Positions 1 to 15,675 of a stretch of DNA of 64,000 nucleotides are shown here, piece after piece. Positions within the stretch are counted from its first letter, which is position 1. Each line of letters opens with the position of its first letter. Both the position numbers and the translations under genes were made by a program. Location of the stretch: NCBI GenBank assembly GCA_032251515.1, contig JAVVDU010000005.1:16396-80395 (forward strand), in the 5' to 3' direction. The notes under the pieces are model-generated. The model did not search any database. It saw only the letters and a list, made by a program, of their open reading frames with translations, and was not told the DNA's origin. The DNA is from Gemmatimonadota bacterium. GTDB lineage: Bacteria; Gemmatimonadota; Gemmatimonadetes; Palauibacterales; Palauibacteraceae.

Positions 1-73
1 AGGCCGCCAGCGAGGCGGCCCAGGTCAGGAGCCACGTCGAAGCACGCACGGTCTCTCCTCCTCGTCCCGTTCT

Positions 74-1561
74 TCAGGCAGGAAACGGAAGCCAGGCCAG
101 CGGGCCGCGCACGGCCACGGAGCGGAGCGGCTCCGGGCGGACGCCGTACGGCCGCAGAAGCGCCCCGGCCGCCAGGAAGCCCGACGCGACGGCCCGCTCC
201 ATCAGGGCGCTGGGAAAGTCGAGCCGCACGAAGTCGCCGGCCAGGGCGAGGTCCGGCTCCGGGGTCTCGACGCCGGGACGCGAGGCGTGTCCCCCGGGCG
301 GGAACGCCGGACAGTCGCGCGCCACGAGGAACTCTTCGTGGATCACGGCCGCCTCCCGCGTCTCGGGATACAGCTCGTGCAGGCCGGACCGCATCGCCTG
401 CCGGACCTCCGCCTCGGACACCGCTTCCGGCATCCCGTAGGCGTGCAGCTCCACCACGGCGCCGCCCGTCCGCCCGGCCCACGCCCTGCTCTCCGCCTCG
501 AACAGGTGGTAGAGCGAGATATTGTCGAGCAGGGGAAATCCCGCGGTTCCCGCGAAGGAGGCCCGTCCCGGGACGGTCGGGCGGTCCAGCCACAGGCGCC
601 ACACGGCGAACGGCCGCGTGAGACGCAGGTCCGCCACGGACGCCCGCCAGGCCGGCGTGCCCAGGCCCGGAGAAGCGTCGACGAGGGCACGGAGGCCGGC
701 CACGTCGAGTGCCAGCACCGCCACGTCCGCCACGTCGCGCCGGGCGTCCTCGCCGCCGGCCGCCTCGTGGACCACCTCCCGGCGGCCGTCCGCCGCACGT
801 CCCAGCGCCGTGGCCCGCCGGCCCGTGAGAACCCGGGCTCCGCGCTCCTCCAGGTAGGCGCGCAGCGGAGCGAGAAGCGCCTTCTCGAACGTGTCGTCGA
901 GGACGTCGAACACGAGGCCCTCGGGGTTCGCGAGAAAGTAGTAGTGAAACATCATCAGCAGGTCGGCCGCCGACATCTCCTCCTCCGGGTTGAAGAAGGA
1001 GTGCGCGAAGACGTCGAACAGCATGCGGCGGGCGCGGGGCGGAAAGCGGAGGGAGTCGAGCCACTCGCCCGCCGTGACTCCGTCGAATCGGCGCCGCGTC
1101 CGCTCCGGGTCCCAGCGCAGCATCTCGAGGGCGGCGCGCCCGTTCACCCGTACAAGGTCGCGCCAGCGGAACGTCTCCGCGCGCCGGATGATCGCCAGGA
1201 AGTTCGCCGGCGGGCGCACGGGCAGACCCTCGAAGGACTGGACGAGGCCGTCGGGCCCGAGCACGGGGTAGTCGGCCAGCGGGACGAGGCGCTCCAGGCC
1301 GGGATCCACGCGGCGCAGCAGGGCGCGGAGGTTGTAGTACTGGCGGAAGAACGCGTGAAAGCCCCGCTCCATCCCCAGCACCGTCCCGTCGGGAAGCTCC
1401 ACCGGCCAGGTGCGGAGCCGTCCCCCGAGCGAGTCGCGGGCCTCGAGGAGGGTCACCCGCACGCCCCGCTCGGCGAGCACCGTCGCCGCCGCCAGGCCGG
1501 CGAGTCCCCCGCCGCACACCACTGCGTCCAGGGGCCGGTCCGGGCGCTCCCGGTCGCTCAT
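74..1561 (-). CDS. FAD-dependent oxidoreductase, amine-oxidase / phytoene-desaturase (CrtI/HpnE)-like
   Basis: The ORF track frame 74..2158 was trimmed to the internal Met (MSDRERPDRPLDAVVCGGGLAGLAAATVLAERG). This start sits directly before a GxGxxG dinucleotide-binding motif. The ATG overlaps the upstream methyltransferase stop (ATGA at 1558-1561). Length (495 aa) and family resemblance are judged from memory of CrtI/HpnE-type flavoproteins. Confidence 0.75.
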   Translation of the reverse strand: MSDRERPDRPLDAVVCGGGLAGLAAATVLAERGVRVTLLEARDSLGGRLRTWPVELPDGTVLGMERGFHAFFRQYYNLRALLRRVDPGLERLVPLADYPVLGPDGLVQSFEGLPVRPPANFLAIIRRAETFRWRDLVRVNGRAALEMLRWDPERTRRRFDGVTAGEWLDSLRFPPRARRMLFDVFAHSFFNPEEEMSAADLLMMFHYYFLANPEGLVFDVLDDTFEKALLAPLRAYLEERGARVLTGRRATALGRAADGRREVVHEAAGGEDARRDVADVAVLALDVAGLRALVDASPGLGTPAWRASVADLRLTRPFAVWRLWLDRPTVPGRASFAGTAGFPLLDNISLYHLFEAESRAWAGRTGGAVVELHAYGMPEAVSEAEVRQAMRSGLHELYPETREAAVIHEEFLVARDCPAFPPGGHASRPGVETPEPDLALAGDFVRLDFPSALMERAVASGFLAAGALLRPYGVRPEPLRSVAVRGPLAWLPFPA

Positions 1562-2271
1562 CCGGGACGCCGACCGAGAAACGAGTGCACGATCCCCCTC
1601 TGCCAGCCATCCATGGGCTCCGTCCGGACGTCCACGAAGCCGGCCCGCGCGAGGCGCCGCTCGAGGGCCCGCACCCCGTCGAACGCGTTCACGCTCCGCC
1701 GCAGGTACCGGTAGATGCGGGTCGATCCCGAGAACAGGAGCCCGCCCGGGATGATGACGCCGAGCGTAACGGCGTTCCACACGAGGCGGCTGCGCGACGA
1801 GTCGGCCACCGAGTACTCGTGCAGGCAGATCGTGCCGCCCGGCCGGAGGAGGCGATACAGGCGGGCCAGGCAGCGGTCGGGGTCGGGCACGTTCCGCAGG
1901 CCGTACGCCATGAGGATCCCGTCGAACGGCCCGGCGAGACCGGACACCTCCGGCTCCATGGCGTCGCCGAGCAGGAACTGGACGGTGGCGGCGAGCGGCT
2001 TGGACCGCGCCACGGCCAGCATGCCGGGCGAGGCGTCCACCGCCACGATCGACGCGCCGGGGCACTCCGCCGCGACCGCCTCGGTCGACAGGCCCGTTCC
2101 GCAGCAGAGGTCCAGCACGCGCGCGTCGGGGCCGAGCCCCAGGCGGCGGGCACTCCACCGCAGATGCTTGCGGTATCCCGGGTTCAGGCCGGTCAGAAGA
2201 TCGTAGCGGCCGGCGACCCGGTCGAAGGCGTCCGGGACGGCGGCCCGGTCACGGTCCAGCGCATCGGGCAT
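1558..2271 (-). CDS. class I SAM-dependent methyltransferase, UbiE/MenG/COQ5-like
   Basis: The ORF track frame 1558..2718 was trimmed to Met150 (MPDALDRDRAAVPDAFDRVAGRYD...). Motif I is VLDLCCGTG and post-I is VAVDASPGM. A motif-III-like LRPGGTICLHE is also present. The product is about 237 aa. The CAT for the start was verified at 2269-2271. Confidence 0.8.
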   Translation of the reverse strand: MPDALDRDRAAVPDAFDRVAGRYDLLTGLNPGYRKHLRWSARRLGLGPDARVLDLCCGTGLSTEAVAAECPGASIVAVDASPGMLAVARSKPLAATVQFLLGDAMEPEVSGLAGPFDGILMAYGLRNVPDPDRCLARLYRLLRPGGTICLHEYSVADSSRSRLVWNAVTLGVIIPGGLLFSGSTRIYRYLRRSVNAFDGVRALERRLARAGFVDVRTEPMDGWQRGIVHSFLGRRPG

Positions 2272-2272
2272 C

Positions 2273-4084
2273 TCAGTGTTCCAGGCCCACCACCCCGTAT
2301 CCCGCATCCGCACCCTGCCAGCGGAGCCACATCGTGGCGGGCGGATACCTGCGCCCGTCCTCTCCAACGACCCGGACCCGCAGCTCGGCGAGCGCCTCAC
2401 GGCCGGCCAGGCCCCCGCCTGGAACGCGGCCCGGGGACCCCCCGGTCGCGGCGATGCGCAGCGAGCGACGCGCGGCAGCCGATCCCTCCGTCCCGGCCGG
2501 GTCCGCCTCGCCGGCGCCCCGCCAGTGGCGGTCCGCCGCATCGTGCTCGAGCTCCCACTCGTAGCGGACCCGGTCGGCCGCCCAAAGCCCCTCGGCGATC
2601 CCGAGATCGTCGAACTCGAGGACGTAGGACTCGGCGGCACCGGCCGCCGGGCCCGTAGCGCCCGCCACCCCGTCGCCGGCCGCACGACGCAGGACCGGGT
2701 TCTCGAGGGGCGAGACATGGCGATACCAGTGGTCCACGATGCGGTCGCGCCGCAGGATCAGGATGTCGGCGAGCGTATCGGCGGCGGTGGAGGTCGGCAG
2801 CTCTCCGGCGGCCACGGCGGCCCGGATCTGTTCGTCGGTGAACGACCCCACCAGCTTGGCGCCCCAGTAGGCGTCGCGCGCCGTCATGTTCCGGAAGGCG
2901 TTGTTCGGCCAGTTCGCCTTCCACGCGCCGGGGTCGAACTCGTCCACTTCCATCCAGCCGATCGAGGGCTCGATGACCTCCCACTCGCGGCCCTCCCAGC
3001 CGACCCTGTAGAAACCGGCCGTCAGGATGCGGGCCGTGGAAGCCCAGAAGTCCACGTTGTGCTCGCGCCCCTCGCGTGGCTCGTGCGGGCGGATCGTTCC
3101 GCTGCCGAGGCTGGCGGCGAAGTCGATCAGGTAGTGGCGCAGGTACCCTGGCTGCACGTACGCGTCCATCGTGTTCATGAACCGGATGTCGATGTGGTTC
3201 ACCCACGAGGCGACCACCTTGAGCCCCCGCAGCTCCCGCCGGTGCTCGTGCGCAAAGTGGTCGTTCGGGTCGTCCCCGCGCCGCCCCTCGAACAGGAAGG
3301 GGCCCTTGGGCGGGCCCGCCACGAACTTGCTCGCCACGGCCAGGAAGCGCCCGTCCGCCAGCCGGTCGGTGCCCTCGAACACGTCCTCCAGCCGCTCCAG
3401 CGTGAGCGGGTGCTCCTCGAACTCCTCGTCCACGAACACGGCGCCCTCGGCCACGGAGAGCTGGTCGCGATCGAACACGAAGATGTAGTCCTCCGGCACG
3501 TGGTAGCCGGCGGCGTGGAACAGCCGGTTGGCGATCACGCCCGCCGCGCTGCTCAGGTGGAGGTAGCCCTCCGGGTCGAACTTCACGACGTAGGTGTCCC
3601 CCCGCCCGTCGCGCAGGTTGAACCCCGGGGCGATCCCCTCGACCTTGGCGGAGACGATCTCCATCGCGCCCGTGGTGTCCGGTCCGGCGGCCGTGGTGGG
3701 ACCGCGCCGCACCTCGTCGGGCGTGAGCGGGCGCGCCGCGTTCCGGTGCTCGAACCACGCCGACGGTACCACGTCGTCGAAATGGGTGAGGTTCAGGGCC
3801 TCGTGGTCCTCGCCGAACGCCGTGCGCAGGCTGATTCCATCGGAGACCTCGCCCGCCAGGGCGTCGTTCACGAGGTGCGGGGCTTCCACCACCTCACGGT
3901 CCGGCGGCTCCGGGATGGGAAGCGTGTCGGCCCAGGCGATGGGCTCGGGGCGCAGCGGCAGCGGAGTGCGCGCGGCGCCCCCGCAGGCGGACAGGAACCC
4001 GGCGGCCAGGATCGCCACGGCGGGCGCCGCGGGACCGGGGACCTGCCCGTGCGCTTGGGGGCGCACTCGATTCAGAACGGCCAT
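2273..4084 (-). CDS. hypothetical lipoprotein (603 aa), function unknown
   Basis: The N-terminus AVAILAAGFLSACGG is a lipobox-type signal. No recognisable catalytic motif was found. The stop lies 2 bp upstream of the methyltransferase start. The start may be a later Met, because 4084 overlaps the upstream OMP gene by 13 bp. Confidence 0.55.
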   Translation of the reverse strand: MAVLNRVRPQAHGQVPGPAAPAVAILAAGFLSACGGAARTPLPLRPEPIAWADTLPIPEPPDREVVEAPHLVNDALAGEVSDGISLRTAFGEDHEALNLTHFDDVVPSAWFEHRNAARPLTPDEVRRGPTTAAGPDTTGAMEIVSAKVEGIAPGFNLRDGRGDTYVVKFDPEGYLHLSSAAGVIANRLFHAAGYHVPEDYIFVFDRDQLSVAEGAVFVDEEFEEHPLTLERLEDVFEGTDRLADGRFLAVASKFVAGPPKGPFLFEGRRGDDPNDHFAHEHRRELRGLKVVASWVNHIDIRFMNTMDAYVQPGYLRHYLIDFAASLGSGTIRPHEPREGREHNVDFWASTARILTAGFYRVGWEGREWEVIEPSIGWMEVDEFDPGAWKANWPNNAFRNMTARDAYWGAKLVGSFTDEQIRAAVAAGELPTSTAADTLADILILRRDRIVDHWYRHVSPLENPVLRRAAGDGVAGATGPAAGAAESYVLEFDDLGIAEGLWAADRVRYEWELEHDAADRHWRGAGEADPAGTEGSAAARRSLRIAATGGSPGRVPGGGLAGREALAELRVRVVGEDGRRYPPATMWLRWQGADAGYGVVGLEH

Positions 4085-5388
4085 TGTCCCCTCACTCCCG
4101 CGTGCACGCTCTCGTCGCTCCAGCCGAAGAAGGCGAGGCCGAGAAGGCGGTCCAGCGATGCGAGCCGCGCGCCGAAGCCGAACGAGGCCCGCCAGTCGTC
4201 AGTCGACAGGTCCTCGATGTCGCTCGTGACGGCCCCCTCTCCGAAGTAGAGGAAGAACTCCGAGCGCAGCGTGTTGTGGATGTCGCGCCAGACCTCGTAG
4301 CGCCACTCGGCCTGCAGGGCCACCATGTCGTTGTCGTGGAAGCGCGAGTTCGAGAAGCCCAGCGCGCTCGAGGTGCCCCCGAGGCGGCTGAGGTGGAAGA
4401 ACGGCACGCCCTGCCCTCCGTCCGAGCGGGCGAAGTTGCCCTCGGCGCTGAGGGCGAGGACCTGCCGGCCGTTCAGCGGCAGGTAGCCCGCCGCCTGTCC
4501 GTTGAGGACGTGGAAGTCGGAGTCCGTGTCGTCCACGCCTTCGTACAGCGAGCCGCCGCCACGCAGCCGGATGCCCCGCCGCTGGAACTCGCGCCGCTTC
4601 GTGAGGTCGAGCGTCACGCCGCCGTCCAGGCGAAGGTACTTGGTCTCCTCGAGCGCGCCGAACAGATCCTCGGGAACGAACCGCTCGAACAGGGACGTCT
4701 CGCCCGACGAGATCGGATCGTCGATCTCGTTGTGCTCGTACGCGCCGCCCACGTCCACCCGAAGCACGGGGAAAACCTGAAGCTCGCCGCTCGCCCCGAC
4801 TTCCCAGTAGTCGCGCGAATAGAAGGACTCGTCTTCCTCGTCCCGCGTCTGCGAGCCGATGCCGTGGAACCGCACCTCGGCATCGCGGTGCCAGCCCGCC
4901 TCCGCGCCGATCGACCCCGCGGCGCCCGACAGGCGGAAGCCCGCCCGGTGCCGCTGCGACTCGCGGAAGCTGATCGCCGAGCTCGCGTAGAACGGAGCAT
5001 AGCGGTCGAACTGGAGCTCCAGGCCGACGCCGCTGCGCGGCCCGATCTGCGTGACCACGCCCGGGCGCAGGCCCCAGGCACTCATGTCCCGGTATGCGCG
5101 CACGAGAAACGTGGGCGGCCGGGGCACGGTCAGCACTCCCGCGACGTAACCCGGCAGCCGGACGAACACGAGCGACAGCGGGAACGCCACGACCTTGAGC
5201 GGAAACTCGGCCACGTCCACCCAGTCCGTGCCGTGCTCGCCCGGCGGCTGCACGAGGTCGGTGCGGGCGGAATCGGCCGCCGCGAGCGCCGCCGCATCGG
5301 GCGCCTCCTGGGCGGCCAGCGGAACCGGCCCGACGGCGGCGCAGGCGACCGCGGCCGCGAGGCAGCCGGCGAGAAGCCGCCGTCTCAC
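4072..5388 (-). CDS. outer-membrane beta-barrel protein (hypothetical)
   Basis: The frame 4072..5856 was trimmed to a GTG start (M/V-RRRLLAGCLAAAVACAAVGPVPLAAQ signal peptide). The C-terminal residue is aromatic (...VRGQWPF), and the sequence shows alternating beta-strand character. The GTG overlaps the upstream gene stop (GTGA at 5385-5388). Confidence 0.55.
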   Translation of the reverse strand: MRRRLLAGCLAAAVACAAVGPVPLAAQEAPDAAALAAADSARTDLVQPPGEHGTDWVDVAEFPLKVVAFPLSLVFVRLPGYVAGVLTVPRPPTFLVRAYRDMSAWGLRPGVVTQIGPRSGVGLELQFDRYAPFYASSAISFRESQRHRAGFRLSGAAGSIGAEAGWHRDAEVRFHGIGSQTRDEEDESFYSRDYWEVGASGELQVFPVLRVDVGGAYEHNEIDDPISSGETSLFERFVPEDLFGALEETKYLRLDGGVTLDLTKRREFQRRGIRLRGGGSLYEGVDDTDSDFHVLNGQAAGYLPLNGRQVLALSAEGNFARSDGGQGVPFFHLSRLGGTSSALGFSNSRFHDNDMVALQAEWRYEVWRDIHNTLRSEFFLYFGEGAVTSDIEDLSTDDWRASFGFGARLASLDRLLGLAFFGWSDESVHAGVRGQWPF

Positions 5389-6692
5389 CCCGCGCACCGG
5401 GGGTCTTCCGTCCCCGCGAAGGGCACGAGCCGGAACTCGTCGATCACCGAGCCGTCGGCCGCGATCGTCCGGCCGAGCAGCCGGTCCGGCGTGATCCGCA
5501 GCTCCGTGAACGAGTACCGCCGGGCCCCCGCCGCGACGATCGGCGCGTCCCGGACGGCCCGGGCATGCATGGACGCGCCACCCGCGCCCTGGAGAACGTG
5601 TGAATAGCCGCATCCGGGCTGCACCCGCCTTCCGTTGCGCACGGGGTATGTGCGCTCGTAGTGATGGTCGTGACCCGCCGCCACCAGATCGACGCCGGTC
5701 CGTTCGAACAGCGGCCCCAGCGTGCGCAGGAGCCTGCCGTCGGGCCCGTGCCCGCTCAGCCCGACCGCGTGGCTGATCAGCGGGTGATGGAGGAATACGA
5801 CCGTCCACCGAATGGTTCCATCGTCGGCCGCTGCCGCGAGCGTCGCTTCGAGCCACTCGTACTGCCGGCCCCGGCCGCGGCGCAGACCCGCAACGTCATC
5901 GGTCGGGCTGCTCGTGTCCAGCGCGACGAACAGTATCGGCCCCCAGCGGAACGAGTACCAGCGGACCCCGGGGAGCGGCGCGGGCCACTCGAAGGCGAGG
6001 TCGTACGGCCGACCGTCTTCCACGTGCAGGTCGTGGTTGCCTACCGCCGGGAAGAACGGCACACCGGCCAGGAGATCGCCGTACACGAGGAAGTGCCGGA
6101 GCGTGAAGTCCCGCTCCGTGCCGTCCTCGTAGGCGACGTCGCCTACATGGATGGCCAGGTCCCATTCCCGGCGATTCATGAGCCGGGCGAGCGCGAGCTG
6201 CCCATCGGACCCCCAGCCGGAGTCCCCGAACAGGAGGACGCGGACGGTGTCCCCGCCCCCCGCCGTCCGACCGGGATCCAACGCCATGCCCGGGGCGGGC
6301 GCCGTCCGGAACCGCCACGGCCCGAGGTCGCCCCCCCCCGGCGACACACGGTACTCGTACGGTGCGGCGGGAGCGAGGGCCTCGAGCCGCGCCCGCCGGA
6401 TGCCGCGGGCCACGGAATCGGCCGGCACGGCGCGCCACGCCCGGGAGGCGCCGGCCGGGACCTCGCCGGACTCCGGATCCGGCGCCACGGACCGGACGTA
6501 TACGGTGTCCCCCCCGGCGGGGCCCGTCGCCTTCCAGAGAATCGTGGCCGCGGAATCCGAGACGTTCTGCACGTAGGGAAGGCGCTCGAACGGCGGCGGC
6601 GGCGTCACGACGACCGGATCGACGGGTCCGGGGTAGCAGCCGGCGAGGAGGAGCGCGGCGAGCGGTCCGGCGGCCCGGGTGACGTGCCGCAT
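5385..6692 (-). CDS. metallophosphoesterase (calcineurin-like / PhoD- or purple-acid-phosphatase-like) lipoprotein
   Basis: The frame 5385..7415 was trimmed to MRHVTRAAGPLAALLLAGC (lipobox). Phosphoesterase motifs are present (GDSGWGSD, HVGDVAYEDG, VGNHD, FLHHPL, AGHDHHYER). The CAT for the start was verified at 6690-6692. Confidence 0.8.
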   Translation of the reverse strand: MRHVTRAAGPLAALLLAGCYPGPVDPVVVTPPPPFERLPYVQNVSDSAATILWKATGPAGGDTVYVRSVAPDPESGEVPAGASRAWRAVPADSVARGIRRARLEALAPAAPYEYRVSPGGGDLGPWRFRTAPAPGMALDPGRTAGGGDTVRVLLFGDSGWGSDGQLALARLMNRREWDLAIHVGDVAYEDGTERDFTLRHFLVYGDLLAGVPFFPAVGNHDLHVEDGRPYDLAFEWPAPLPGVRWYSFRWGPILFVALDTSSPTDDVAGLRRGRGRQYEWLEATLAAAADDGTIRWTVVFLHHPLISHAVGLSGHGPDGRLLRTLGPLFERTGVDLVAAGHDHHYERTYPVRNGRRVQPGCGYSHVLQGAGGASMHARAVRDAPIVAAGARRYSFTELRITPDRLLGRTIAADGSVIDEFRLVPFAGTEDPRCAG

Positions 6693-6891
6693 GCCCGAAT
6701 GGCACGATCGCCGGCCCGCCGCAGGGAACGGAATGCCACTCCGGCGGGGTTTGCGCTCCCGGCGGGGCCGCGCCGCGGCGCGGATCCTGCTTCCACGTAT
6801 CGGGTCCGGCGCGGCCGCGCGGCGACAGGCTCGCTGCCGGGCACGCGCCGGACTCGCCGGGGGAAAGGCGCCCCCGCCCACGAACCGAACG

Positions 6892-9543
6892 ATGGATCCG
6901 AACATGATCGAGCGAAACGATAGCGTGACGTCGCCCCATCTCCAAGACGGGCTCCGCATACTCGCCGAACAGGGCGAGGTGAGGATCGCCTGGGACGACG
7001 GGGACGAAGAGCCGGGTGACGCGCCCGGGGCGAAGCACGCGCCGCAGCGCCTGCGCCTCCCCGTGCTGCCGCTCCGGGGCACGGTCGTGTTCCCCGCCGT
7101 GGCCGCCCCCATCGCGGCGGGACGCGAGAAGACCCTGGCGGCGATCGAGAAGGCCCTGAAGGGAGACCGCCTGCTCCTCGCGCTCTCCCAGCGGGACGCC
7201 GAGCTGGAGGACCCCGTCCCCGGTGCGCTGTACGAGGTCGGCACGATCGTGCGGATCGCCCAGATGCAGCGCGTGCCGGGCGGCATCCAGCTCGTGGTCC
7301 AGGGCGACTCACGGGGCGCCGTGCTCGAGCTGGAGGAGGCCGACGACCACCTCGTGGCCGTGGTGCGCCGGCTGGAGGACATGCCCCCTCTCGACCCGGA
7401 CGCGCCCTCGTTCACCGCCCTCTACAAGGAGGTGCACGAGCGGGCCGCCCAGCTCAGCCGGCTGCGCGGCGTTCCGAAGGAGATCGTGGACCACCTGCTG
7501 GGCAACGTGCGCGGCGGCGGCGAGATGGCCGATCTCATCACCTTCTACACCGAGCTCGAGGTGGAGGAGAAGCAGGAACTCCTGGAGACCCTGTCGGTGG
7601 AGGACCGCCTCCGGAAGCTCCTTCTCCACCTGCAGAAGCAGATCGGGGTCCTCGAAGCCCAGGCGCAGATCCGCAGCAAGGTCCAGGAGGAGCTCGGCGA
7701 GCGGCAGCGCGAGATCTTCCTGCGCGAGCAGATGAAGGCGATCCAGTCGGAGCTGGGCGACGACGCGGGCGCCCAGGACATCGAGGAGTTGCGCGAGCGC
7801 CTGGCCGGGCTCGAGCTGCCCGAGGAGGCGCGCAAGGAGGTCGATCGGGAGATCCGCCGCCTGGAACGAGTCCCGCGCGAGTCGGCGGAGGCCCAGGTGG
7901 TGCGCACGTTCCTGGAGACCGTGGCCGACCTCCCGTGGAACACGACCACGGAGGACCGCCTCGACCTGGCGCGCGCCGAGGAGATCCTGGAACGGGACCA
8001 CTACGGCCTGAAGGACGTGAAGGACCGGGTCCTGGACTTCCTCGCCGTGCGGAAGCTGCAGGGCGAGCGCTGCGACGACGCGGAGGAGGCGGAGCGGTCG
8101 GCGGGCGACACGGAAGGTGAAGGTCCGCCCGCCGGCGAGGACGAGGAGGGCGTGGCGACCGACGGGCCGCGGCCGGAGGACGACGGGGCCTGCGTCGGGC
8201 AGGCGGACGACCGCACGGGATCCACGATCCTGTTCGTGGGCCCGCCGGGCGTCGGCAAGACCTCGATCGCCAAGTCCATCGCCGACGCGATGGGCCGCAA
8301 GTACGTGCGCGTGTCGCTCGGCGGGGCGCGCGACGAGGCGGACATCCGGGGCCACCGCCGCACGTACGTCGGCGCGCTGCCCGGACGGATCATCGAGGGG
8401 CTGAAGCGCGCGGGGAGCAAGAATCCCGTCTTCCTGCTGGACGAGGTGGACAAGCTGGGGGTGTCGTTCCAGGGAGATCCGTCCGCGGCGCTGATGGAGG
8501 TGCTGGATCCGGCCCAGAACCAAGCCTTCGTCGACCACTACATGGGGATCCCGTTCGACCTGTCCGACGTCATGTTCATCGCCACGGCGAACTTCCCCCA
8601 CCAGATCCCCGGTCCGCTCAAGGACCGGATGGAGGCGATCGAGTTCGTCGGCTACACGGAGCAGGAAAAGCTGGAGATCGCCAAGCGGTACCTCCTGCCC
8701 CGGCAGCGGGAGCAGAACGGTCTGACGGCGGAGCAGTTGGGCGTGGACGACGCGGCGATCCGCGAAATCATCACCAGCTACACCCGCGAGGCGGGCGTCC
8801 GCAACCTGGAGCGTGAGATCGGCTCCATCGCCCGCAAGAGCGCGCGCCGGATCGCTTCGGACGCAGCGGAGTCCGTGCAGGTCGGCCCGGAGGACCTGCG
8901 GGAGCTCATCGGACGCCCCAAGGTCCACCCGGAAAAGCGCATGGAGGCGGACACGGTGGGCGTGGCCACGGGCATGTACTACACGCCGGTGGGCGGCGAC
9001 ATCATGCTCGTCGAGTGCAGCGTGGTGCCGGGACGCGACGGCCTGGTCCTCACCGGTCAGCTCGGCGACGTGATGAAGGAGAGCGCCCGCGCCGGCCTCA
9101 CCTTCGCGCGGACGCACGCCGGCGAGCTCGGCATCCCCGAGGAGACGCTGAAGGACCACGAGATCCACGTGCACGTCCCAGCCGGGGCCGTGCCGAAGGA
9201 AGGTCCGTCGGCCGGGATCGCGATGGCCCTGGCGATGATCTCATCGTTCAGCGGCCGGCCCGTGCGCGCCGACGTCGCGATGACCGGCGAAGTGACCCTG
9301 CGCGGAAGGGTCCTCCCCATCGGCGGCGTGAAGGAGAAGGTCCTCGGCGCCGAGCGGGCGGGCATCCGCCACATCATCCTCCCGAAGGACAACGAGGGAG
9401 ACGTGGACGACCTCCCGGAGGAGGCCCGGGAGAGGCTCGAGTTCCACTTCGCCGAGACGCTGGAGGAGGTGCTGGCCGTGGCGCTGGTCCCGGCTCCCGA
9501 GCCCGCGCCGGAGCCGGAGCCGGAGGCCGCGACGGTCAGCTGA
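6892..9543 (+). CDS. lon: ATP-dependent Lon protease
   Basis: The Lon N-domain, Walker A (GPPGVGKTS), the AAA+ region and the C-terminal S16 protease domain with the catalytic Ser context (PKEGPSAGIAM) are all present. The frame 6679..9543 was trimmed to MDPNMIERND (ATG at 6892; an alternative Met is at 6907). Confidence 0.93.
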   Translation: MDPNMIERNDSVTSPHLQDGLRILAEQGEVRIAWDDGDEEPGDAPGAKHAPQRLRLPVLPLRGTVVFPAVAAPIAAGREKTLAAIEKALKGDRLLLALSQRDAELEDPVPGALYEVGTIVRIAQMQRVPGGIQLVVQGDSRGAVLELEEADDHLVAVVRRLEDMPPLDPDAPSFTALYKEVHERAAQLSRLRGVPKEIVDHLLGNVRGGGEMADLITFYTELEVEEKQELLETLSVEDRLRKLLLHLQKQIGVLEAQAQIRSKVQEELGERQREIFLREQMKAIQSELGDDAGAQDIEELRERLAGLELPEEARKEVDREIRRLERVPRESAEAQVVRTFLETVADLPWNTTTEDRLDLARAEEILERDHYGLKDVKDRVLDFLAVRKLQGERCDDAEEAERSAGDTEGEGPPAGEDEEGVATDGPRPEDDGACVGQADDRTGSTILFVGPPGVGKTSIAKSIADAMGRKYVRVSLGGARDEADIRGHRRTYVGALPGRIIEGLKRAGSKNPVFLLDEVDKLGVSFQGDPSAALMEVLDPAQNQAFVDHYMGIPFDLSDVMFIATANFPHQIPGPLKDRMEAIEFVGYTEQEKLEIAKRYLLPRQREQNGLTAEQLGVDDAAIREIITSYTREAGVRNLEREIGSIARKSARRIASDAAESVQVGPEDLRELIGRPKVHPEKRMEADTVGVATGMYYTPVGGDIMLVECSVVPGRDGLVLTGQLGDVMKESARAGLTFARTHAGELGIPEETLKDHEIHVHVPAGAVPKEGPSAGIAMALAMISSFSGRPVRADVAMTGEVTLRGRVLPIGGVKEKVLGAERAGIRHIILPKDNEGDVDDLPEEARERLEFHFAETLEEVLAVALVPAPEPAPEPEPEAATVS

Positions 9544-10246
9544 GCGACAGGAGCTCGGCGGGAGACGAGAGGATCCGGTCGGGGCCCTCGGGCTCCAGCA
9601 CATCGCGGCCGTTCGGTCCCCAGGTCACGGCGACGGTCCGGACGCCGGCCGCCCGGCCCGCGCGCATGTCGTGCACGCTGTCCCCCACGTACACGGCCCG
9701 GCCGGGCTCGGTCTCCCCGGCCCGGGCCAGCGCCGCGAGCACCGGCTCCGGTTCGGGCTTGAACCGCGTCACATCGTCGGCGGTCACGACGGCGGCGAAC
9801 CACTCCTCCGGGATCCCGCAGACACTCAGGCCCATGCGGGTGGCCGGCGCGCGCTTGCTCGTGGCGATGGCCAGCCGGCGGCCCGCCGACCGGAGACCGG
9901 CGAGGGCCTCCCGGATGCCGGGGAACGGGCGCACGAAGCGGTCGTGCGCGGCCAGGTTGTGCTCCGTGTAGGTCCGCACCATGGCCTCCGACTCCGCGTC
10001 GGAGCGGGCGAACTCCCGCATCGCGAGGGCGAGCGGGCGGCCGATCGTGCGGCGCCACAGCTCGTCGGGCGGCGCCTCGCCGCGGTGGGTGCGCAGGGCG
10101 TGCCGATACGAGGCGAGGATCAGCGCCTCGCTGTCGATGAGCGTCCCGTCGAGGTCGAACACGACGGTCCGGAGGCCGCCGTCCGAGTTCGACTCCGGCG
10201 CGGTCTCCGGCGCCGACCTCGGCGCGGCGTCGGGCCCGGCGGTCAC
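9536..10246 (-). CDS. HAD-family hydrolase (phosphoglycolate phosphatase-like)
   Basis: HAD motif I (VVFDLDGTLIDS) is followed by motif II (IATSK) and motif IV (VGDSVHDMRAG). The GTG start was chosen because it overlaps the pfk stop (GTGA at 10243-10246). The 3' end overlaps the lon stop by 8 bp in convergent orientation. Confidence 0.75.
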   Translation of the reverse strand: MTAGPDAAPRSAPETAPESNSDGGLRTVVFDLDGTLIDSEALILASYRHALRTHRGEAPPDELWRRTIGRPLALAMREFARSDAESEAMVRTYTEHNLAAHDRFVRPFPGIREALAGLRSAGRRLAIATSKRAPATRMGLSVCGIPEEWFAAVVTADDVTRFKPEPEPVLAALARAGETEPGRAVYVGDSVHDMRAGRAAGVRTVAVTWGPNGRDVLEPEGPDRILSSPAELLSLS

Positions 10247-11526
10247 CCGGCGCGCCCGGGGCCGGTCAGGGCCTCCTCGAACCGGGCCCGGAAGGCTTCC
10301 GGGTCCATGCCCGCCGCCTCGGCGATCGTGGCGCGCATCACCGGGTCGTCGAGATCCCGCCGCTCCAGACGGATCATGTACTGCCTCGCCACCCGGAAGT
10401 GCTCCGAGTCCACGTCCACGAGGCGCACGCGCGTGCGCCCCGTCTCCGGGTCGCGGAACTCCTCGAACGGCCGCACGCTCAGGTGCCCGGCGCGGGTGAG
10501 CGTGACCATCCCGCCCAGGTGCAGGGGCTCGCTCACCGTGTCGGCGAGCAGGAAGCGGGCCGCCCCGAAGCCCAGCGTCCGCACGTAGTCGACGTCGAAC
10601 GGGATGGGCGGTGCGCAGCGCAGCTCGTATCCCACGCGCAGGTCGGTGATCGTCGCCTTCTCCCCTCGCTCGCGGAACCGACGCTGGACTTCGCGCTTGA
10701 GGATCGTCTCGATGGGGATCTCGGCGAGCCGCAGGTGTCCGTACTGGTCGTACTCGACCTCCACGCCGGGCAGCTTGGCGAGTTCGTCCGGGTCCATCCG
10801 CTCGCCGAGCCCCTCGGCGAGCACCGCGAGCCCGTCCCTCCGTCCCAGGGCCCGGCGCTTCAGGATCGCACCCTCGAGAATCGTGCAGACCTGGCCCACC
10901 GTGATCGTGCCCGGGGGGAACTCCTCCGGGATCACCGTCAGGGTCGCCCCGGCCGCCTTGCCGATGCCGAGCGCGAGGTGCCCCGCCTTGCGCCCCATGA
11001 CCGTCACGAAGAACCACCGGTTCGTCGTCCGCGAATCCTCCATCAGGTTCTGGGCGATCTCGGCCCCCAGGTCTCGCGCGGTCTCGTACCCGAACGTCGG
11101 CATGTCGCCGGGAAGCGGCAGATCGTTGTCGATCGTCTTGGGGACGTGCGCCACGCGCAGCGCTCCCCCGGCGGCGGCCGCCACCTCGCGCGCCCCGAAG
11201 GCCGTGTCATCCCCGCCGATCGTGACCAGCCGGTCGATGCCGAGGTCCTGGAGCGCCATGACCGTGCGGTGAAGCGCCTCGGGCGACCTGGTCGGGTTCG
11301 CCCGCGAGGTCCGCAGGATCGACCCTCCCGTCGCGTGGATGCGCGACACGTCGGCCACCGTCAGCGGTTGTACGACGTCGGTGCGCCCGGCCATCAGGTG
11401 CTCGAAGCCGTCGAATATCCCGATCACCTCACGCCCGTCATCGATCATCCGCAGGGCGGCCGAGCTGATCGCGCCGTTGATGCCGGGAGCCGGTCCGCCC
11501 CCGACGAGAATCCCGATTCTGGACAA
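10243..11526 (-). CDS. pfkA: 6-phosphofructokinase (long PfkA-type, possibly PPi-dependent)
   Basis: The N-terminus GILVGGGPAPGINGAIS, the TIGGDDT and MGRKAGHLAL motifs, and the protein length (427 aa) fit the long PFK clade. ATP versus PPi specificity cannot be told from sequence by eye. Confidence 0.88.
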   Translation of the reverse strand: MSRIGILVGGGPAPGINGAISSAALRMIDDGREVIGIFDGFEHLMAGRTDVVQPLTVADVSRIHATGGSILRTSRANPTRSPEALHRTVMALQDLGIDRLVTIGGDDTAFGAREVAAAAGGALRVAHVPKTIDNDLPLPGDMPTFGYETARDLGAEIAQNLMEDSRTTNRWFFVTVMGRKAGHLALGIGKAAGATLTVIPEEFPPGTITVGQVCTILEGAILKRRALGRRDGLAVLAEGLGERMDPDELAKLPGVEVEYDQYGHLRLAEIPIETILKREVQRRFRERGEKATITDLRVGYELRCAPPIPFDVDYVRTLGFGAARFLLADTVSEPLHLGGMVTLTRAGHLSVRPFEEFRDPETGRTRVRLVDVDSEHFRVARQYMIRLERRDLDDPVMRATIAEAAGMDPEAFRARFEEALTGPGRAG

Positions 11527-11822
11527 GTGTACTTCCCCCGTTCGCGTGGTTCGCAGGTGCCGGTCTCCAACCTCCCGGCGGGGGCCGGGGCCGTCAAGCG
11601 GCCGCCGGCATCCGGCAGGAGAACGCGGCAGTCTGCACGGAGTTCCGCCGCCGCGGCCGGCCCGGATGCCCCGGCATCATCATAACCATCTGCTGACAAA
11701 GGACATGGCTCGACCCACAGTGGGGGCACATCCCTTGCGGTCCGATGAACGGATTCACGACCGATCCCGCGGGCGAACGCGGACGGTCGCGAAAGCTCGA
11801 AGCTTTTCGACTGGGGGAGAAG

Positions 11823-12914
11823 ATGCGGTACGCAACGTTCGGTCGTCCTCTGCTGGCGGCCCTTCTCACGTTCGGACTGGGCGCCTGCAGTGACGACGAC
11901 GCCACGGGTCCTTCGACGCCGTTCGACCCGGATGCCGCGGCGCAGGCCGCGGTCGAGCTGGAAGATCGCCTGGATTCCGACAGCGACGTGATGCGGTCGC
12001 TCTCGCTCGTCGCGCCCGCACTCGAGGCGGAGGGCGGAGCGGTCCTGCGGGTCCTGCCCGGGGACGTCCAGCGGCCCGTCAGCTCGTTCTCGGCACAGCT
12101 CCTGATGGACCCGGCCCTCTCGATGTCGGCCTCGATGGAGCCGGTGTTTCCCAGCAACTTCCTCGGAAAGACGTTCGAGTGGGACGACACCCTCGGACGC
12201 TACGCGATGACGGACCGGGCCGGAGCGCCGGCCACGGGCGTGCGGTTCATTCTGTACTCTGTGGACCCGTTCACCGGCCAGCCGGTCCTGCCGCTCTCCG
12301 AGATCGGCTCTCTGGACCTGACCGACGAGAGCGATGCGTCGCAGACTCGCCTGCGGCTGCGGGCCGAGACGGGAGGCGTGGCGCGCCTGGACTACTTCGT
12401 GAGTCTCAGCTTCGCCGTCTTCGAGTCGTCCATCGAGGTGACGGCGACCGGGGCCGGCTTCATCTCCGACGGGACGCAGCGGCTGGACTTCGACCTCGCG
12501 CAGGACGTCGCGGTGAGCGACCAGGCCGTCTCCATCGACCTGCTCTACGACCTCGAGATGGCGGACCAGGACGTGCGGGTCGTCCTCGACGTGACGAGCG
12601 AGGCCAGCCTCGCCGACCCCGAGGCGGGATCGTTCGACCTCACCATGACCCTGACCGACGGCGGAAACGTCACGGTCGTCTCCGGCGCGCTCGACGCGGC
12701 GGAGAACCTCACCGGCACGATCGTGCACAACGGCCAGACGGTCGCCCTGATCGGCGGCACGGCTGACGCGCCGACGTTCACGGACGGGGCGGGCGAGCCG
12801 CTCACGTCCACCGAGGTCGCGGCGCTGGACGATCTGCTGGACGCGATCGACGACCTGTTCGACTTCGGCGAGGCGATCTTCGAGCCGTTCGGGGCGGACC
12901 CGGACAGCATCTGA
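11823..12914 (+). CDS. hypothetical lipoprotein
   Basis: The frame 11745.. was trimmed to MRYATFGRPLLAALLTFGLGACSDDD (lipobox). An SD-like gggggag lies 4-10 nt upstream of the ATG at 11823. The sequence is Asp/Thr-rich with no known motif. Confidence 0.55.
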   Translation: MRYATFGRPLLAALLTFGLGACSDDDATGPSTPFDPDAAAQAAVELEDRLDSDSDVMRSLSLVAPALEAEGGAVLRVLPGDVQRPVSSFSAQLLMDPALSMSASMEPVFPSNFLGKTFEWDDTLGRYAMTDRAGAPATGVRFILYSVDPFTGQPVLPLSEIGSLDLTDESDASQTRLRLRAETGGVARLDYFVSLSFAVFESSIEVTATGAGFISDGTQRLDFDLAQDVAVSDQAVSIDLLYDLEMADQDVRVVLDVTSEASLADPEAGSFDLTMTLTDGGNVTVVSGALDAAENLTGTIVHNGQTVALIGGTADAPTFTDGAGEPLTSTEVAALDDLLDAIDDLFDFGEAIFEPFGADPDSI

Positions 12915-13019
12915 CCGGCGGGCCCGCCCGGCCGGACCGACCTCCGGCCGGGCGGGACGCACGACGAAGCGCCGCATCGCCGCGCGGGCCCTCTCGGGGG
13001 GTCCGCGCGGCGACCGCTA

Positions 13020-13550
13020 TCACGCCCCTCTCTGCAGCTTCGCGAGCTTCGGCGCGATGACCACGGCACAGTAAGGCGCGGTCGGATTCCGCCGGTAGAA
13101 CCCGCGGTGTTCCTCCTCGGCCGGCCAGAACTCGTCGAGCCGGCGCACCTCGGTGACGATCGGGCCGGGGAACGCTCCGTCCGCCTCCAGGGCGGCGATC
13201 ACTTCGCGGGCCGTGCGCTCCTGCTCCTCGTCGTGGGCCAGGACGATCGACCGGTACTGCGATCCGACATCCGCGCCCTGGCGGTCCCGCGTCGTGGGAT
13301 CGTGCGTGGCGAAGAAGATCTCGAGCAGGCGGCGGAAAGCGACGCGTCCCGGATCGAACCGGACCTGCACGACCTCTGCGTGCCCGGTGCCGCCGCCGCA
13401 CACCTGCCGGTAGGACGGGTCCGGCTCGTGGCCCCCCGCGTAGCCCGGGATGACCTCCTCGACGCCGGGGACCCGCTCGAACACCGCCTCCGTGCACCAG
13501 AAGCAGCCGCCGCCAAAGGTGGCCGTCGCGATCGCCGTTCCGCCGGTCAT
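13020..13550 (-). CDS. msrA: peptide-methionine (S)-S-oxide reductase
   Basis: The MsrA active-site motif GGGCFWC and the overall fold signature are present. The frame was trimmed to the second Met (MTGGTAIATATFGGGCFWC), with CAT verified at 13548-13550. Confidence 0.9.
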   Translation of the reverse strand: MTGGTAIATATFGGGCFWCTEAVFERVPGVEEVIPGYAGGHEPDPSYRQVCGGGTGHAEVVQVRFDPGRVAFRRLLEIFFATHDPTTRDRQGADVGSQYRSIVLAHDEEQERTAREVIAALEADGAFPGPIVTEVRRLDEFWPAEEEHRGFYRRNPTAPYCAVVIAPKLAKLQRGA

Positions 13551-13587
13551 CTCACGCCTCCCCGCGTTGTCCGCCGCGCGGGGCCGC

Positions 13588-14409: not shown

Positions 14410-14516
14410 GTCCCGCCTTTCCGGCTCCGGCGCTCGCGGCGCGGCGTCGGAGTCCGCAGTTTCGACCGGGCCGGGGCGCGTGTTCCCCGACCGGACCATC
14501 TCTTTCGAGGAGGAAC

Positions 14517-15233: not shown

Positions 15234-15318
15234 GCGCCGGTGGGAGCCGGGGGGCGCGCGGGCGCTTCGGCGCGCCGTGCCGTGCCCGGAAGGAAATTCT
15301 GTGACCAGGAAGGTTGCG

Positions 15319-15666: not shown

Positions 15667-15675
15667 GGCCGCCCC

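Follow-up and report, generated by a model that had tools for sequence, protein, structure and literature searches.

A carotenoid crtT-crtU gene pair and an outer-membrane module with a predicted kinase-fold lipoprotein lie head to tail in a Gemmatimonadota genome

Five closely packed genes and a partial sixth

The analysed window is a 64-kb stretch of a Gemmatimonadota metagenome-assembled genome (MAG). Five closely packed minus-strand genes, here g1 to g5, span positions 6692 to 74. The first, g1 (6692-5385; 435 aa), starts with ATG and has the lipobox LLAGC. It is followed by g2 (5388-4072; 438 aa), whose GTG start lies within the GTGA at 5388-5385, and by g3 (4084-2273; 603 aa), with an ATG start and the lipobox LSAC. 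The last two genes, g4 (2271-1558; 237 aa) and g5 (1561-74; 495 aa), both start with ATG, that of g5 within the ATGA at 1561-1558. While g2 and g3 overlap by 13 nt (4084-4072), the stop codon of g3 (TGA, 2275-2273) and the start codon of g4 (ATG, 2271-2269) leave a gap of 1 nt, position 2272, rather than the 2 bp given in the initial annotation. Otherwise the five genes and the tight junctions that it described (GTGA, 13-nt overlap, small gap, ATGA) are all present in the sequence. This spacing is consistent with co-transcription and translational coupling of the five genes. In all five frames, GC3 (0.89-0.92) greatly exceeds GC2 (0.49-0.56), the pattern expected of real genes in a genome of 72-73% GC, and homologues of each gene were found in other phyla.

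The unit extends past g5 into a sixth minus-strand gene (positions 1-49), absent from the earlier five-gene list and truncated by the window edge, whose predicted product is a small membrane protein of DUF2177 type. Its GTG, at 49, follows the g5 stop after a 24-nt spacer that contains GGAGGAG. Its first 16 residues, VRASTWLLTWAASLAA, match the start of a DUF2177 protein (136 aa, 150 bits) encoded at the equivalent position, downstream of crtU, in a close relative (locus L005; g5 identity, 76%). At the other end, an intergenic region (6693-6891) separates g1 from the divergent gene lon (plus strand; probable ATG at 6892), an arrangement that is conserved in the clade, and is the presumed promoter region of the unit. 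A consensus scan of the unit for promoters and terminators returned nothing above chance, so the promoter role of this region is one that we infer.

A crtT-crtU pair of aromatic-carotenoid type

Profile searches place g4 and g5 in broad families. The g4 protein matches Pfam Ubie_methyltran (94 bits) and g5 matches Amino_oxidase (131 bits). Their best NCBIfam matches are MenG/UbiE for g4 (110-115 bits) and HpnE for g5 (157 bits), but the former lie far under every cutoff (158-327) and the latter far under its cutoff of 283; scores of g5 against the CrtI, CrtD, and protoporphyrinogen oxidase (PPO) models are also far below the cutoffs. This classification, which the initial annotation had proposed as a check, upholds its “UbiE-like methyltransferase” at the level of the Pfam family and not at that of the curated models.

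Close relatives are found in Streptomyces. The g4 protein is 51% identical (E 1e-59) to a methyltransferase of Streptomyces atratus encoded between a lycopene cyclase gene and crtU, and g5 shows 48% identity across 460 residues (E 2e-131) with a Streptomyces protein in the crtU position. Homologues of g5 carry JGI labels of isorenieratene synthase or phi/chi-ring synthase. Streptomyces crtY-crtT-crtU operons face crtE-crtI-crtB-DUF5914, and a layout of crtY/crtT/crtU plus crtE/I/B/V has been reported in the literature (PMC11998277, PMC13505331, PMC8539372). The pair, which the initial annotation had described as small-molecule enzymes of isoprenoid, quinone, or carotenoid type, corresponds to crtT-crtU in the isorenieratene-type cluster known from Streptomyces (crtE-I-B-V / crtY-T-U; S. 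griseus, and S. coelicolor SCO0185-0191). As in Streptomyces, the methyltransferase gene precedes that of the FAD enzyme with a 4-nt overlap, and relatives' loci carry Rieske/DUF5914, lycopene cyclase, crtI, and crtB genes, the Rieske/DUF5914 protein being 44% identical to its Streptomyces counterpart. Unlike in Streptomyces, the pair resides in a Gemmatimonadota MAG, is detached from crtY, lies behind an envelope module, and has a DUF2177 gene after crtU. No crtE was seen in the crt loci of relatives.

Homologues of g5 were compared across 80 genome loci from Gemmatimonadota, Myxococcota, Acidobacteriota, Latescibacterota, Planctomycetota, Spirochaetia, and Gammaproteobacteria. At least one crt gene (crtV, crtY, crtI, or crtB) accompanies the g5 homologue in 59 of the 80. 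Upstream flanks of 5 kb or more are available for 58 loci, and in 30 of these a g4 homologue immediately precedes that of crtU. The alternative that g4 and g5 are a UbiE/MenG methyltransferase and an HpnE-type hydroxysqualene dehydroxylase, of quinone or hopanoid metabolism, draws on the best NCBIfam matches and on one Archangium homologue labelled hydroxysqualene dehydroxylase in UniRef. The sub-cutoff scores, the Streptomyces identities, and the neighbours in relatives, which are lycopene cyclase, a CrtI-like desaturase, a single SQS_PSY, and Rieske/DUF5914 rather than hpnC/hpnD/shc or men genes, disfavour this alternative and make it barely credible.

From these sequence relationships, we assign g4 to the CrtT-type SAM-dependent methyltransferases of aromatic-carotenoid clusters, not to UbiE or MenG, and predict that g5 is a CrtU/CruE-type FAD enzyme with an amine-oxidase fold, a carotenoid phi/chi-ring (aromatic ring) synthase. 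Together with the partial DUF2177 gene, they appear to form the edge of an aromatic-carotenoid cluster. Since the rest of that cluster lies outside the window, its pathway is read from relatives, in which the remaining crt genes (Rieske/DUF5914 “crtV,” lycopene cyclase, crtI, and crtB) occur within a few kilobases. The g5 enzyme would aromatize the beta-rings of beta-carotene, giving phi or chi rings of the isorenieratene or renierapurpurin type, with g4 (CrtT) as its habitual partner. To our knowledge, no reaction is known for CrtT methyltransferases, and we know of no CrtT partner in cyanobacteria. In the cyanobacterial CruE/CruH synechoxanthin pathway, a CrtU-family ring aromatase and an oxygenase act on aromatic carotenoids (PMC7395447). 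In gene pairing, relatives of the window are comparable: their clusters combine the g5 homologue and a gene for a Rieske-type, oxygenase-like protein.

An envelope module with a predicted kinase-fold lipoprotein

The other three genes encode predicted envelope proteins, as initially annotated; they are two lipoproteins, by their lipoboxes, and an Omp85 barrel. The g1 protein matches Pfam Metallophos (52 bits) and, faintly, Pur_ac_phosph_N. Among solved structures, it comes closest to plant diphosphonucleotide phosphatase 1 (E 6e-9) and to purple acid phosphatases, and it is 25-26% identical (E ~1e-8) to the esterases encoded after Omp85-g3 in Zixibacteria and Latescibacteria. Of the proposed PhoD/calcineurin-like phosphoesterase lipoprotein, the Metallophos domain and the lipobox are retained, but the PhoD model is not reached (15.9, threshold 27) and purple acid phosphatases are closer. 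We therefore class g1 as a putative lipoprotein metallophosphoesterase resembling purple acid phosphatases, and as part of the envelope module. The g2 protein has a visible signal peptide and matches Pfam Omp85 (37.3 bits, cutoff 24). It scores 27 bits against the BamA model, whose cutoff is 297, and its sole PDB sequence match, a weak one, is also BamA. A domain-model search detected no POTRA or other extra domain at E ≤ 10. Thus, g2 is classed as an Omp85-superfamily beta-barrel outer-membrane protein.

No Pfam or NCBIfam family matches g3, which has homologues in 3001 representative clusters (E ≤ 1e-3) and which we treat as the founding member here of a large candidate family that lacks a Pfam model. 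In a Foldseek search of the PDB, the AF2 model of g3 (mean pLDDT, 92.3) has as its top matches the kinases Fam20C (E 3e-4), Fam20A, and Helicobacter pylori CtkA, a similarity that is significant but modest, with low TM-scores for this multi-domain model. On this model, the g3 lipoprotein combines a protein-kinase-like fold with a C-terminal beta-sandwich. Its conserved residues include K168, D299, N304, and D321-F322; in 148 sequences, conservation is at least 90% at the beta-3 Lys, at the HxD Asp and the Asn five positions after it, and at the DF(G/A) Asp. At least 90% of the family keep the lipobox Cys, and the family also has an invariant motif of its own, DDPNDxxxHxHRRELRG. Weak HipA_2 matches occur in 5 of 34 family members. 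The conserved Lys/Asp/Asn/Asp set argues for nucleotide-dependent catalysis.

The association of g3 with an Omp85 barrel reaches well beyond Gemmatimonadota. In 44 of 46 metagenome loci, the g3 homologue is immediately preceded by a same-strand gene for an Omp85-like protein, and the 13-nt g2/g3 overlap is retained even in loci that lack crtT-crtU. Where g3 has 3 kb or more of flank to each side, as in 23 metagenome loci, Omp85 is present in all 23, a TLC transporter in 11, an esterase in 11, and crtT-crtU in 7. Gene orders include PAP2-Omp85-g3-esterase-TLC-TLC/HEAT-cNMP in Zixibacteria, Omp85-g3-esterase-TLC/HEAT-cNMP in Latescibacteria, and MlaEFD-Omp85-g3 in Calditrichaceae. Natural fusions occur as well: g3-Omp85, TLC-g3, and GT4-g3, each seen in two independent sequences, and g3-PAP2, for which this does not hold. 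The recurrent NTT/TLC transporter and phosphatase neighbours fit nucleotide use and phosphate turnover.

The module shares features with several known systems. Like Fam20C/Fam20A, CtkA, and the HipA family, g3 has the kinase-like fold and the Lys/Asp/Asn/Asp set, with weak HipA_2 matches in its family, and its predicted site of action is outside the cytoplasm, as for Fam20C and CtkA. Unlike them, it is a lipoprotein with its own motif and an extra beta-sandwich, is encoded beside an Omp85 barrel, and has no significant sequence similarity to these kinases. Type Vb two-partner secretion and PlpD-like type Vd systems resemble the module in that an Omp85 barrel is encoded beside a protein that it may export or anchor, and the rare g3-Omp85 fusions have the N-terminal passenger and C-terminal barrel of PlpD. 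However, domain searches detected neither a POTRA in g2 nor a TPS domain in g3. Here, a lipoprotein would be the passenger, and its gene follows that of the barrel, with the stop and start codons overlapping. In the portions available to us of a paper on NTT-HEAT(-cNBD) nucleotide-transporter fusions in free-living bacteria, no function is assigned to them and no link to an Omp85/kinase-fold module is mentioned (Major et al. 2017, PMC5381601). A TLC + HEAT gene and then a cNMP-binding gene adjoin Omp85-g3-esterase in Zixibacteria and Latescibacteria, and the TLC + HEAT/cNMP architecture occurs in 11 of the 23 well-flanked loci. In contrast to such loci, the 64-kb window contains no TLC/NTT gene.

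For catalysis, substrate, topology, and ATP supply, we infer a scheme in which g3 would be exported via Sec/Lol as a lipoprotein with catalytic Lys/Asp/Asn/Asp positions, and the POTRA-less barrel g2 would anchor it in the outer membrane or carry it across. There, g3 would move phosphate from a nucleotide to some envelope protein, lipid, or glycan, and g1 would undo this modification or degrade the spent nucleotide, a role that the PAP2 phosphatase may fill in other lineages. In many other genomes, the co-encoded NTT/TLC-HEAT transporter and cNMP-binding protein would bring ATP to the periplasm. Kinase folds support several chemistries, including AMPylation (SelO) and glutamylation (SidJ). The module might be real and g3 not a phosphotransferase, but an enzyme of other kinase-fold chemistry, a binding pseudokinase, or a surface lipoprotein displayed by Omp85. 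The pseudokinase Fam20A is among the best fold matches, SidJ and pseudokinases are among the weaker ones, kinase Pfam models are all below threshold for g3 and family members, and the alpha-C Glu of the family consensus reads as Gly in the alignment of the window's clade. Set against the near-invariant catalytic positions and the recurring transporters and phosphatases, these features leave such a role for g3 somewhat unlikely.

Two probably independent units in one lineage

The initial annotation read the five genes as a single uncharacterised pathway that it could not match to a known cluster, in which a carotenoid or isoprenoid lipid made or modified by g4-g5 would be processed, exported, or inserted at the outer membrane by g1-g3. 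In favour of this reading, stops and starts overlap or abut at all four junctions, the g3/crtT spacing is conserved (-1 to +11 nt) in nine cleanly measurable clade loci (L010 is not scorable), and the crt clusters of other Gemmatimonadota are flanked by genes for a FadL/TodX-like outer-membrane protein and DUF4136 lipoproteins, a hint of a carotenoid-envelope link in this phylum. Yet crtT-crtU and the envelope module are each conserved without the other. Among the 58 well-flanked g5 loci, g2/g3 are present in 7, all Gemmatimonadota, and absent from 51; in every phylum outside the clade, crtT-crtU occurs without g1-g3, in many within crtY/crtI/crtB/Rieske-DUF5914 clusters. Conversely, the seven g3 loci with crtT-crtU all belong to the close clade, none of the 16 well-flanked loci whose g3 identity is under 54% has the pair, and the envelope module occurs without it in Gemmatimonadota, Zixibacteria, Latescibacteria, and Calditrichia. 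Elsewhere, g3 is accompanied by nucleotide transporters and phosphatases rather than by enzymes of isoprenoid metabolism, and 4 kb separate g3 from crtT in one locus (L016). A single pathway is thus very improbable. Conservation of the pair alone is the outcome that the initial annotation had tied to fortuitous juxtaposition, with the difference that the genes are of carotenoid rather than menaquinone type.

We consider it likely that the locus comprises two evolutionarily and functionally independent units, the edge of a carotenoid cluster and a kinase-fold envelope module, which in one Gemmatimonadota lineage are arranged head to tail and probably share a transcript. The five genes are indeed co-located in relatives, but in that lineage only; there, the envelope module borders on the whole crt cluster, and in several loci the complete set of crt genes comes directly after it. 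Offsets between g3 and crtT reach ~120 nt in metagenome loci placed by tblastn. Because the tight junction persists despite divergence to ~55-77% protein identity, some selective reason may keep g3 and crtT co-expressed.

The carotenoid half of the locus is an ordinary, already known gene pair. The envelope half is the new lead: g1-g3 appear to be a separate, older, and previously undescribed outer-membrane module, widespread in several phyla and possibly involved in phosphorylation outside the cytoplasm.

Layout and junctions of the five genes

Gene calls were made by reading the minus strand of positions 1–7000 together with the ORF list. They bear out the initial annotation of five co-directional minus-strand genes, in both coordinates and junctions, with one correction. 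The first gene, g1 (6692–5385; ATG start), encodes a lipoprotein metallophosphoesterase with the lipobox LLAGC. It is followed by g2 (5388–4072), which encodes an Omp85 barrel with a signal peptide and whose GTG start lies within the GTGA at 5388–5385. The third gene, g3 (4084–2273; ATG start; lipobox LSAC), encodes a predicted kinase-fold lipoprotein and overlaps g2 by 13 nt. The ATG of the methyltransferase gene g4 (2271–1558) is one base past the g3 stop codon (TGA, 2275–2273); the gap is thus 1 nt, and not the 2 bp first given. Finally, g5 (1561–74), for an FAD enzyme, has its ATG within the ATGA at 1561–1558. GC3 is 0.89–0.92 and GC2 0.49–0.56 in the five frames, which indicates that these are real genes and not spurious long ORFs of 72–73% GC DNA. 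The DNA is from a Gemmatimonadota MAG, and the g3 and g5 products have identical counterparts among NCBI proteins.

A sixth minus-strand gene, truncated at the window boundary, starts with GTG at position 49, 24 nt after the end of g5 and behind a spacer containing GGAGGAG. Its opening residues agree with those of a DUF2177 membrane protein (150 bits) whose gene is placed likewise in the closely related locus L005 (76% g5 identity). Upstream, 199 bp separate g1 from the divergent gene lon. A consensus promoter scan of positions 1–7200 returned no promoter-like site, and a terminator scan of the same region returned a single site, within g3, which is no more than in shuffled sequence.

The NCBI gene model of g3 (P0121, 581 aa) begins 22 codons downstream of ATG 4084 (window 4019–4084). 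We favour the longer form on sequence grounds, because its N-terminus (MA[VI]L..R) is kept in homologues and the 13-nt overlap with the barrel gene is recurrent. Elsewhere in the window, G+C reaches 0.80 at 46001–48000, against 0.72–0.76 over the remainder, and dips to 0.66 at 38001–40000.

A crtT-crtU pair at the predicted edge of a carotenoid cluster

By curated HMMs, g4 and g5 fall outside every family, which accounts for the lack of a match in the initial annotation. The protein encoded by g5 has an FAD-dependent amine-oxidase fold, as expected of CrtU/CruE (KEGG K09879), with Pfam matches to Amino_oxidase (130.7 bits) and NAD_binding_8 (55.6 bits) and an N-terminal dinucleotide-binding motif (GGGLAG, residues 17–22). 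It shares 48% identity over 460 residues (BLASTP, E 2e-131) with a Streptomyces atratus protein that occupies the crtU position of a crtYTU/crtEIBV cluster and served as the reference for CrtU. Many of its homologues carry JGI names such as isorenieratene synthase or carotenoid phi/chi-ring synthase. The product of g4 matches Ubie_methyltran (Pfam, 94 bits) and is 51% identical (BLASTP, E 1e-59) to a Streptomyces methyltransferase encoded between crtY and crtU. This homology, and a position immediately upstream of the crtU homologue with an ATGA overlap, identify g4 as a CrtT-type gene.

Other identities fit less well. HpnE, the hydroxysqualene dehydroxylase, is the best NCBIfam model for g5, ahead of the much lower-scoring CrtI, CrtD, zeta-carotene desaturase, and PPO models, but it is rejected on both score (TIGR03467, 156.6 bits against a cutoff of 283.05) and synteny. 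UbiE/MenG is likewise rejected for g4, which falls below the cutoff of every MenG/UbiE equivalog model (110–115 bits against 158–327 for the TIGR01934 and PRK00216 models) and has a different synteny. A third candidate was the BfaA/BfaB-type pair, a methyltransferase and an FAD oxidoreductase that act on fatty acids to give 10-methyl products. That pair employs a CFA-synthase-type methyltransferase, whereas g4 is UbiE-type and the neighbourhoods of its relatives are carotenoid clusters.

Streptomyces offers the closest described arrangement. Its g5 homologues, found by tblastn of plasmids, are 47–48% identical over 93% of g5. Annotated loci comprise two divergent units, one with lycopene cyclase, methyltransferase, and FAD oxidoreductase genes, the other with polyprenyl synthetase, crtI, phytoene synthase, and DUF5914 protein genes. 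The 4-nt overlap of methyltransferase and oxidoreductase genes is common to Streptomyces and g4-g5. In the first related contig (72% identity), genes for a Rieske/DUF5914 protein, lycopene cyclase, a CrtI-like desaturase, and phytoene synthase lie a few kilobases downstream, and the Rieske/DUF5914 protein of relatives is 44% identical to that of Streptomyces (BLASTP, E 5e-80).

A scan of one genome per species placed g5 homologues in 80 loci; these belong to Gemmatimonadota, Myxococcota, Acidobacteriota, Latescibacterota, Planctomycetota, Spirochaetia, and Gammaproteobacteria. Annotated by tblastn with the window proteins and the crt proteins of the genome locus L001, 59 of the 80 carry at least one crt gene, commonly in the order crtY ... 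crtI-crtB-(crtT)-crtU-Rieske/DUF5914. Where at least 5 kb is present upstream of crtU, crtT is directly upstream of it in 30 of 58 loci. Several loci of the Gemmatimonadota clade that has all five genes read lon / g1-g2-g3-crtT-crtU, followed directly by crtV (the Rieske/DUF5914 gene), crtY and a 257-aa gene on the opposite strand, and then by crtI-crtB; a full beta-carotene gene set (crtB, crtI, and lycopene cyclase) is present in L008, L012, L087, and L120. None of these three genes is seen in the window, whose start cuts off the downstream region, so their presence beyond it is predicted from relatives. The g4-g5 genes are a crtT-crtU pair of an already known kind and not a new pathway, with a predicted ring-aromatising activity for CrtU. 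CrtU/CruE convert beta-rings to aromatic rings (PMC7395447). The carotenoid half is an ordinary case of a known cluster type, of which this is a newly found member. None of the papers found in our literature searches mentions DUF5914, and none of those consulted gives CrtT or CrtV a reaction.

Several further features of these clusters were observed. The 257-aa gene, with no Pfam family, separates the lycopene cyclase gene from crtI in L001 (18310–19083), and its homologues do so in the Gemmatimonadota crt clusters L003, L008, L011, L012, L016, and L087. Two natural fusions, P0071 (846 aa) and P0093 (853 aa), join a CrtU-like enzyme to a Rieske and a DUF5914 domain, which supports a putative functional partnership of crtU and the crtV oxygenase-like protein. 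The crtT homologue of one Latescibacterota genome (L024, 9184–9878) aligns as two overlapping pieces, suggesting a frameshift or a sequencing error. Next to the crt cluster of L001 lie DUF4136 lipoprotein genes and a gene whose 464-aa product weakly matches FadL/TodX (Toluene_X) (11525–15799); similar flanks occur downstream of the Rieske/DUF5914 gene in L023, L037, L041, and L057, also from Gemmatimonadota. These flanks may connect carotenoids with the outer membrane in a different way. The DUF2177 gene for a small membrane protein follows crtU in the window (1–49, minus strand) and in L005 (11523–11930), and lies 2–3.5 kb from crtU in two Acidobacteriota loci (L063, 13570–13935; L070, 14751–15128). 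According to a preprint, heliorhodopsin genes characteristically have DUF2177 as a neighbour (bioRxiv 10.1101/2021.02.16.431466), so a connection of this family with light or carotenoids is possible.

The envelope module

The remaining three genes encode envelope proteins. We find that g2 belongs to the Omp85 superfamily (PF01103, 37.3 bits against a gathering threshold of 24). No POTRA family matches it at E ≤ 10, and neither POTRA nor an equivalog-level score assigns it to the BamA, TamA, or TpsB subfamilies; BamA itself is rejected on score (27.2 bits against 297) and synteny. The g1 product is a purple-acid-phosphatase-like metallophosphoesterase: it matches Metallophos in Pfam (52.2 bits against 21.5), and the PDB entries closest to it in sequence include plant diphosphonucleotide phosphatase 1 (E 6e-9) as well as purple acid phosphatases (E 1e-6), with a faint match to the N-terminal PAP domain (E 0.078). 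PhoD alkaline phosphatase is rejected (Pfam PhoD, 15.9 bits against a gathering threshold of 27, and synteny).

For g3, neither Pfam nor NCBIfam gives a match, and in a PDB profile search the sole matches, to designed armadillo repeats, were short and spurious. An initial model, based on 18 close sequences (pLDDT 59.9), had no significant fold matches and was replaced by an AF2 model from 148 diverse sequences, with a mean pLDDT of 92.3 and a pTM of 0.92. This model has a predicted bilobal kinase fold. Its best Foldseek matches in the PDB (probabilities 0.96–1.0) are mostly kinases: Fam20C (E 3e-4), Fam20A, DrFam20C1, alpha-kinase, PINK1, HipT, PI4KII-alpha, and Helicobacter pylori CtkA (probability 1.0, target TM-score 0.55). 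Weak HipA_2 matches were found in 5 of 34 family members. K168 (strand YVVKFDP) is invariant in the family, and no fewer than 90% of the 148 sequences keep H297/D299/N304 (NHxDxxxxN) and D321-F322 (DFA/DFG-like). K168, D299, N304, and D321 correspond to the beta-3 lysine, the catalytic-loop aspartate and asparagine, and the metal-binding aspartate, roles assigned by place in the predicted secondary structure rather than by residue-level superposition. The motif DDPNDxxxHxHRRELRG is invariant and specific to the family, the lipobox cysteine is conserved across it, and the C-terminal 140 residues are modelled as a beta-sandwich.

The family is large. A profile search of 1.84 billion representatives recovered 3001 clusters (50% identity) at E ≤ 1e-3 and 924 at E ≤ 1e-30. 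The named members belong to Latescibacteria, Zixibacteria, Calditrichia, Krumholzibacteria, Marinimicrobia, and Poribacteria; each bears the label "hypothetical" and lacks a Pfam domain. In rare fusions, g3 is combined with an Omp85 barrel, a TLC (NTT-type nucleotide) transporter, PAP2, or a GT4 glycosyltransferase, each in two independent sequences except for g3-PAP2.

The Omp85-g3 pair recurs in distant phyla. Zixibacteria have PAP2-Omp85-g3-Metallophos-TLC-TLC/HEAT-cNMP, Latescibacteria have Omp85-g3-Metallophos-TLC/HEAT-cNMP, and Calditrichaceae have MlaEFD-Omp85-g3. Genes for NTT/TLC-HEAT transporters, often with a cNMP-binding gene after them, adjoin the Omp85/kinase-fold/esterase module in L090 (8976–13719) and L091 (9015–12307). 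The g1 and g2 of the window are homologous to the Zixibacteria/Latescibacteria esterases and barrels at 25–27% identity (E 1e-8 and 2e-18). A metagenome scan, based on an alignment of 12 sequences since a 34-sequence one was too diverse, gave 80 loci. Of the 46 with enough flank, 44 have an Omp85-like gene directly upstream of the g3 homologue and in the same orientation. All 23 loci flanked by 3 kb or more on each side contain Omp85; 11 contain TLC, 11 an esterase, and 7 crtT-crtU. NTT-HEAT-cNBD proteins of free-living bacteria have been documented, with a function reported as unknown (PMC5381601).

The envelope half is made of known parts in a new combination. It appears to be undescribed, because Pfam and NCBIfam hold no model, its members are labelled "hypothetical", and limited literature searches found no paper on it.

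Linkage in one lineage and a possible phosphorylation system

The initial annotation suggested that all five genes form one pathway that makes or modifies a lipidic or isoprenoid molecule and handles it at the outer membrane. A single pathway would fit the tight g3/crtT junction, which stays between -1 and +11 nt over considerable divergence, and the FadL-like and DUF4136 outer-membrane genes that flank other Gemmatimonadota crt clusters. Yet of the 58 genome loci whose sequence extends 5 kb or more upstream of crtU, only 7 contain g2/g3, all from Gemmatimonadota with at least 59% g5 identity, and in one of these (L016) g3 and crtT are 4 kb apart and g1 is missing. Other Gemmatimonadota have a plain crt cluster. 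The crtT-crtU pair therefore occurs mostly without g2/g3, the outcome that the initial annotation had itself taken to favour fortuitous juxtaposition.

The view from g3 is the same. All 7 metagenome loci with crtT-crtU belong to the close clade, with lon and g1 upstream, and none of 16 well-flanked loci below 54% g3 identity has the pair. Homologues of g3 at 55–56% identity lie in TLC-Omp85-g3 or SDF-Omp85-g3 loci without crtT-crtU, where the barrel gene and g3 keep an overlap of 13 nt or 1 nt. In the window, lon (+), a HAD hydrolase gene (-), and a phosphofructokinase gene (-) adjoin g1 (6892–11526). Related clade loci keep this order, which accounts for the apparent conservation of the five-gene arrangement in close relatives. 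The joining of envelope and carotenoid-type genes thus stands as an observation, and its initial interpretation is supported in part, but the five genes are not a conserved module, their linkage is specific to one lineage, and we consider a single pathway very improbable. The window contains two units: the conserved envelope module g1-g3 and, in g4, g5, and probably the DUF2177 gene, what we take to be the edge of an aromatic-carotenoid cluster. On the simplest reading, this cluster came, as a whole, to adjoin the envelope module, and its two co-directional edge genes joined that module's transcription unit.

Aromatic-carotenoid clusters of the crtT-crtU type are found in many non-phototrophic phyla. 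CrtU outside Actinobacteria and phototrophs was known at the annotation level, with K09879 in Myxococcota (PMC10576062). This spread bears on the use of fossil aromatic carotenoids as markers of sulfidic, sunlit water (PMC7395447).

Of greater value is the envelope half: about 3000 clusters (50% identity) of confidently predicted kinase-fold lipoproteins with no Pfam model, nearly always with a POTRA-less Omp85 and often with phosphatases and NTT-type transporters. The core of this module is the Omp85 barrel with the kinase-fold lipoprotein. From fold, conserved residues, fusions, and neighbourhoods, we infer a mechanism in which the barrel would anchor or expose the lipoprotein, which would perform nucleotide-dependent phosphotransfer on an envelope substrate; the g1 phosphatase would undo this modification, and NTT/TLC transporters would provide ATP in many lineages. 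On secreted phosphoproteins, vertebrate Fam20C and the purple acid phosphatase TRAP have opposing actions, a parallel to g3 and g1 that we offer as analogy, not evidence.

Module members occur in Gemmatimonadota, Zixibacteria, Latescibacteria, Calditrichia, Marinimicrobia, Krumholzibacteria, and Poribacteria. It is possible, albeit doubtful, that the Omp85/kinase-fold lipoprotein/PAP-like module is a dedicated extracytoplasmic phosphorylation system of diderms, with a Fam20/CtkA-like kinase anchored at or displayed on the outer membrane by its own Omp85, ATP exported by NTT-HEAT(-cNMP), and a phosphatase for reversal. If so, the unexplained NTT-HEAT proteins of free-living bacteria would gain a function as well. 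The bacterial periplasm and cell surface are generally regarded as lacking ATP-dependent chemistry. The envelope module is a concrete, testable candidate for such chemistry outside the cytoplasm, and provides a testable role for NTT-HEAT proteins.
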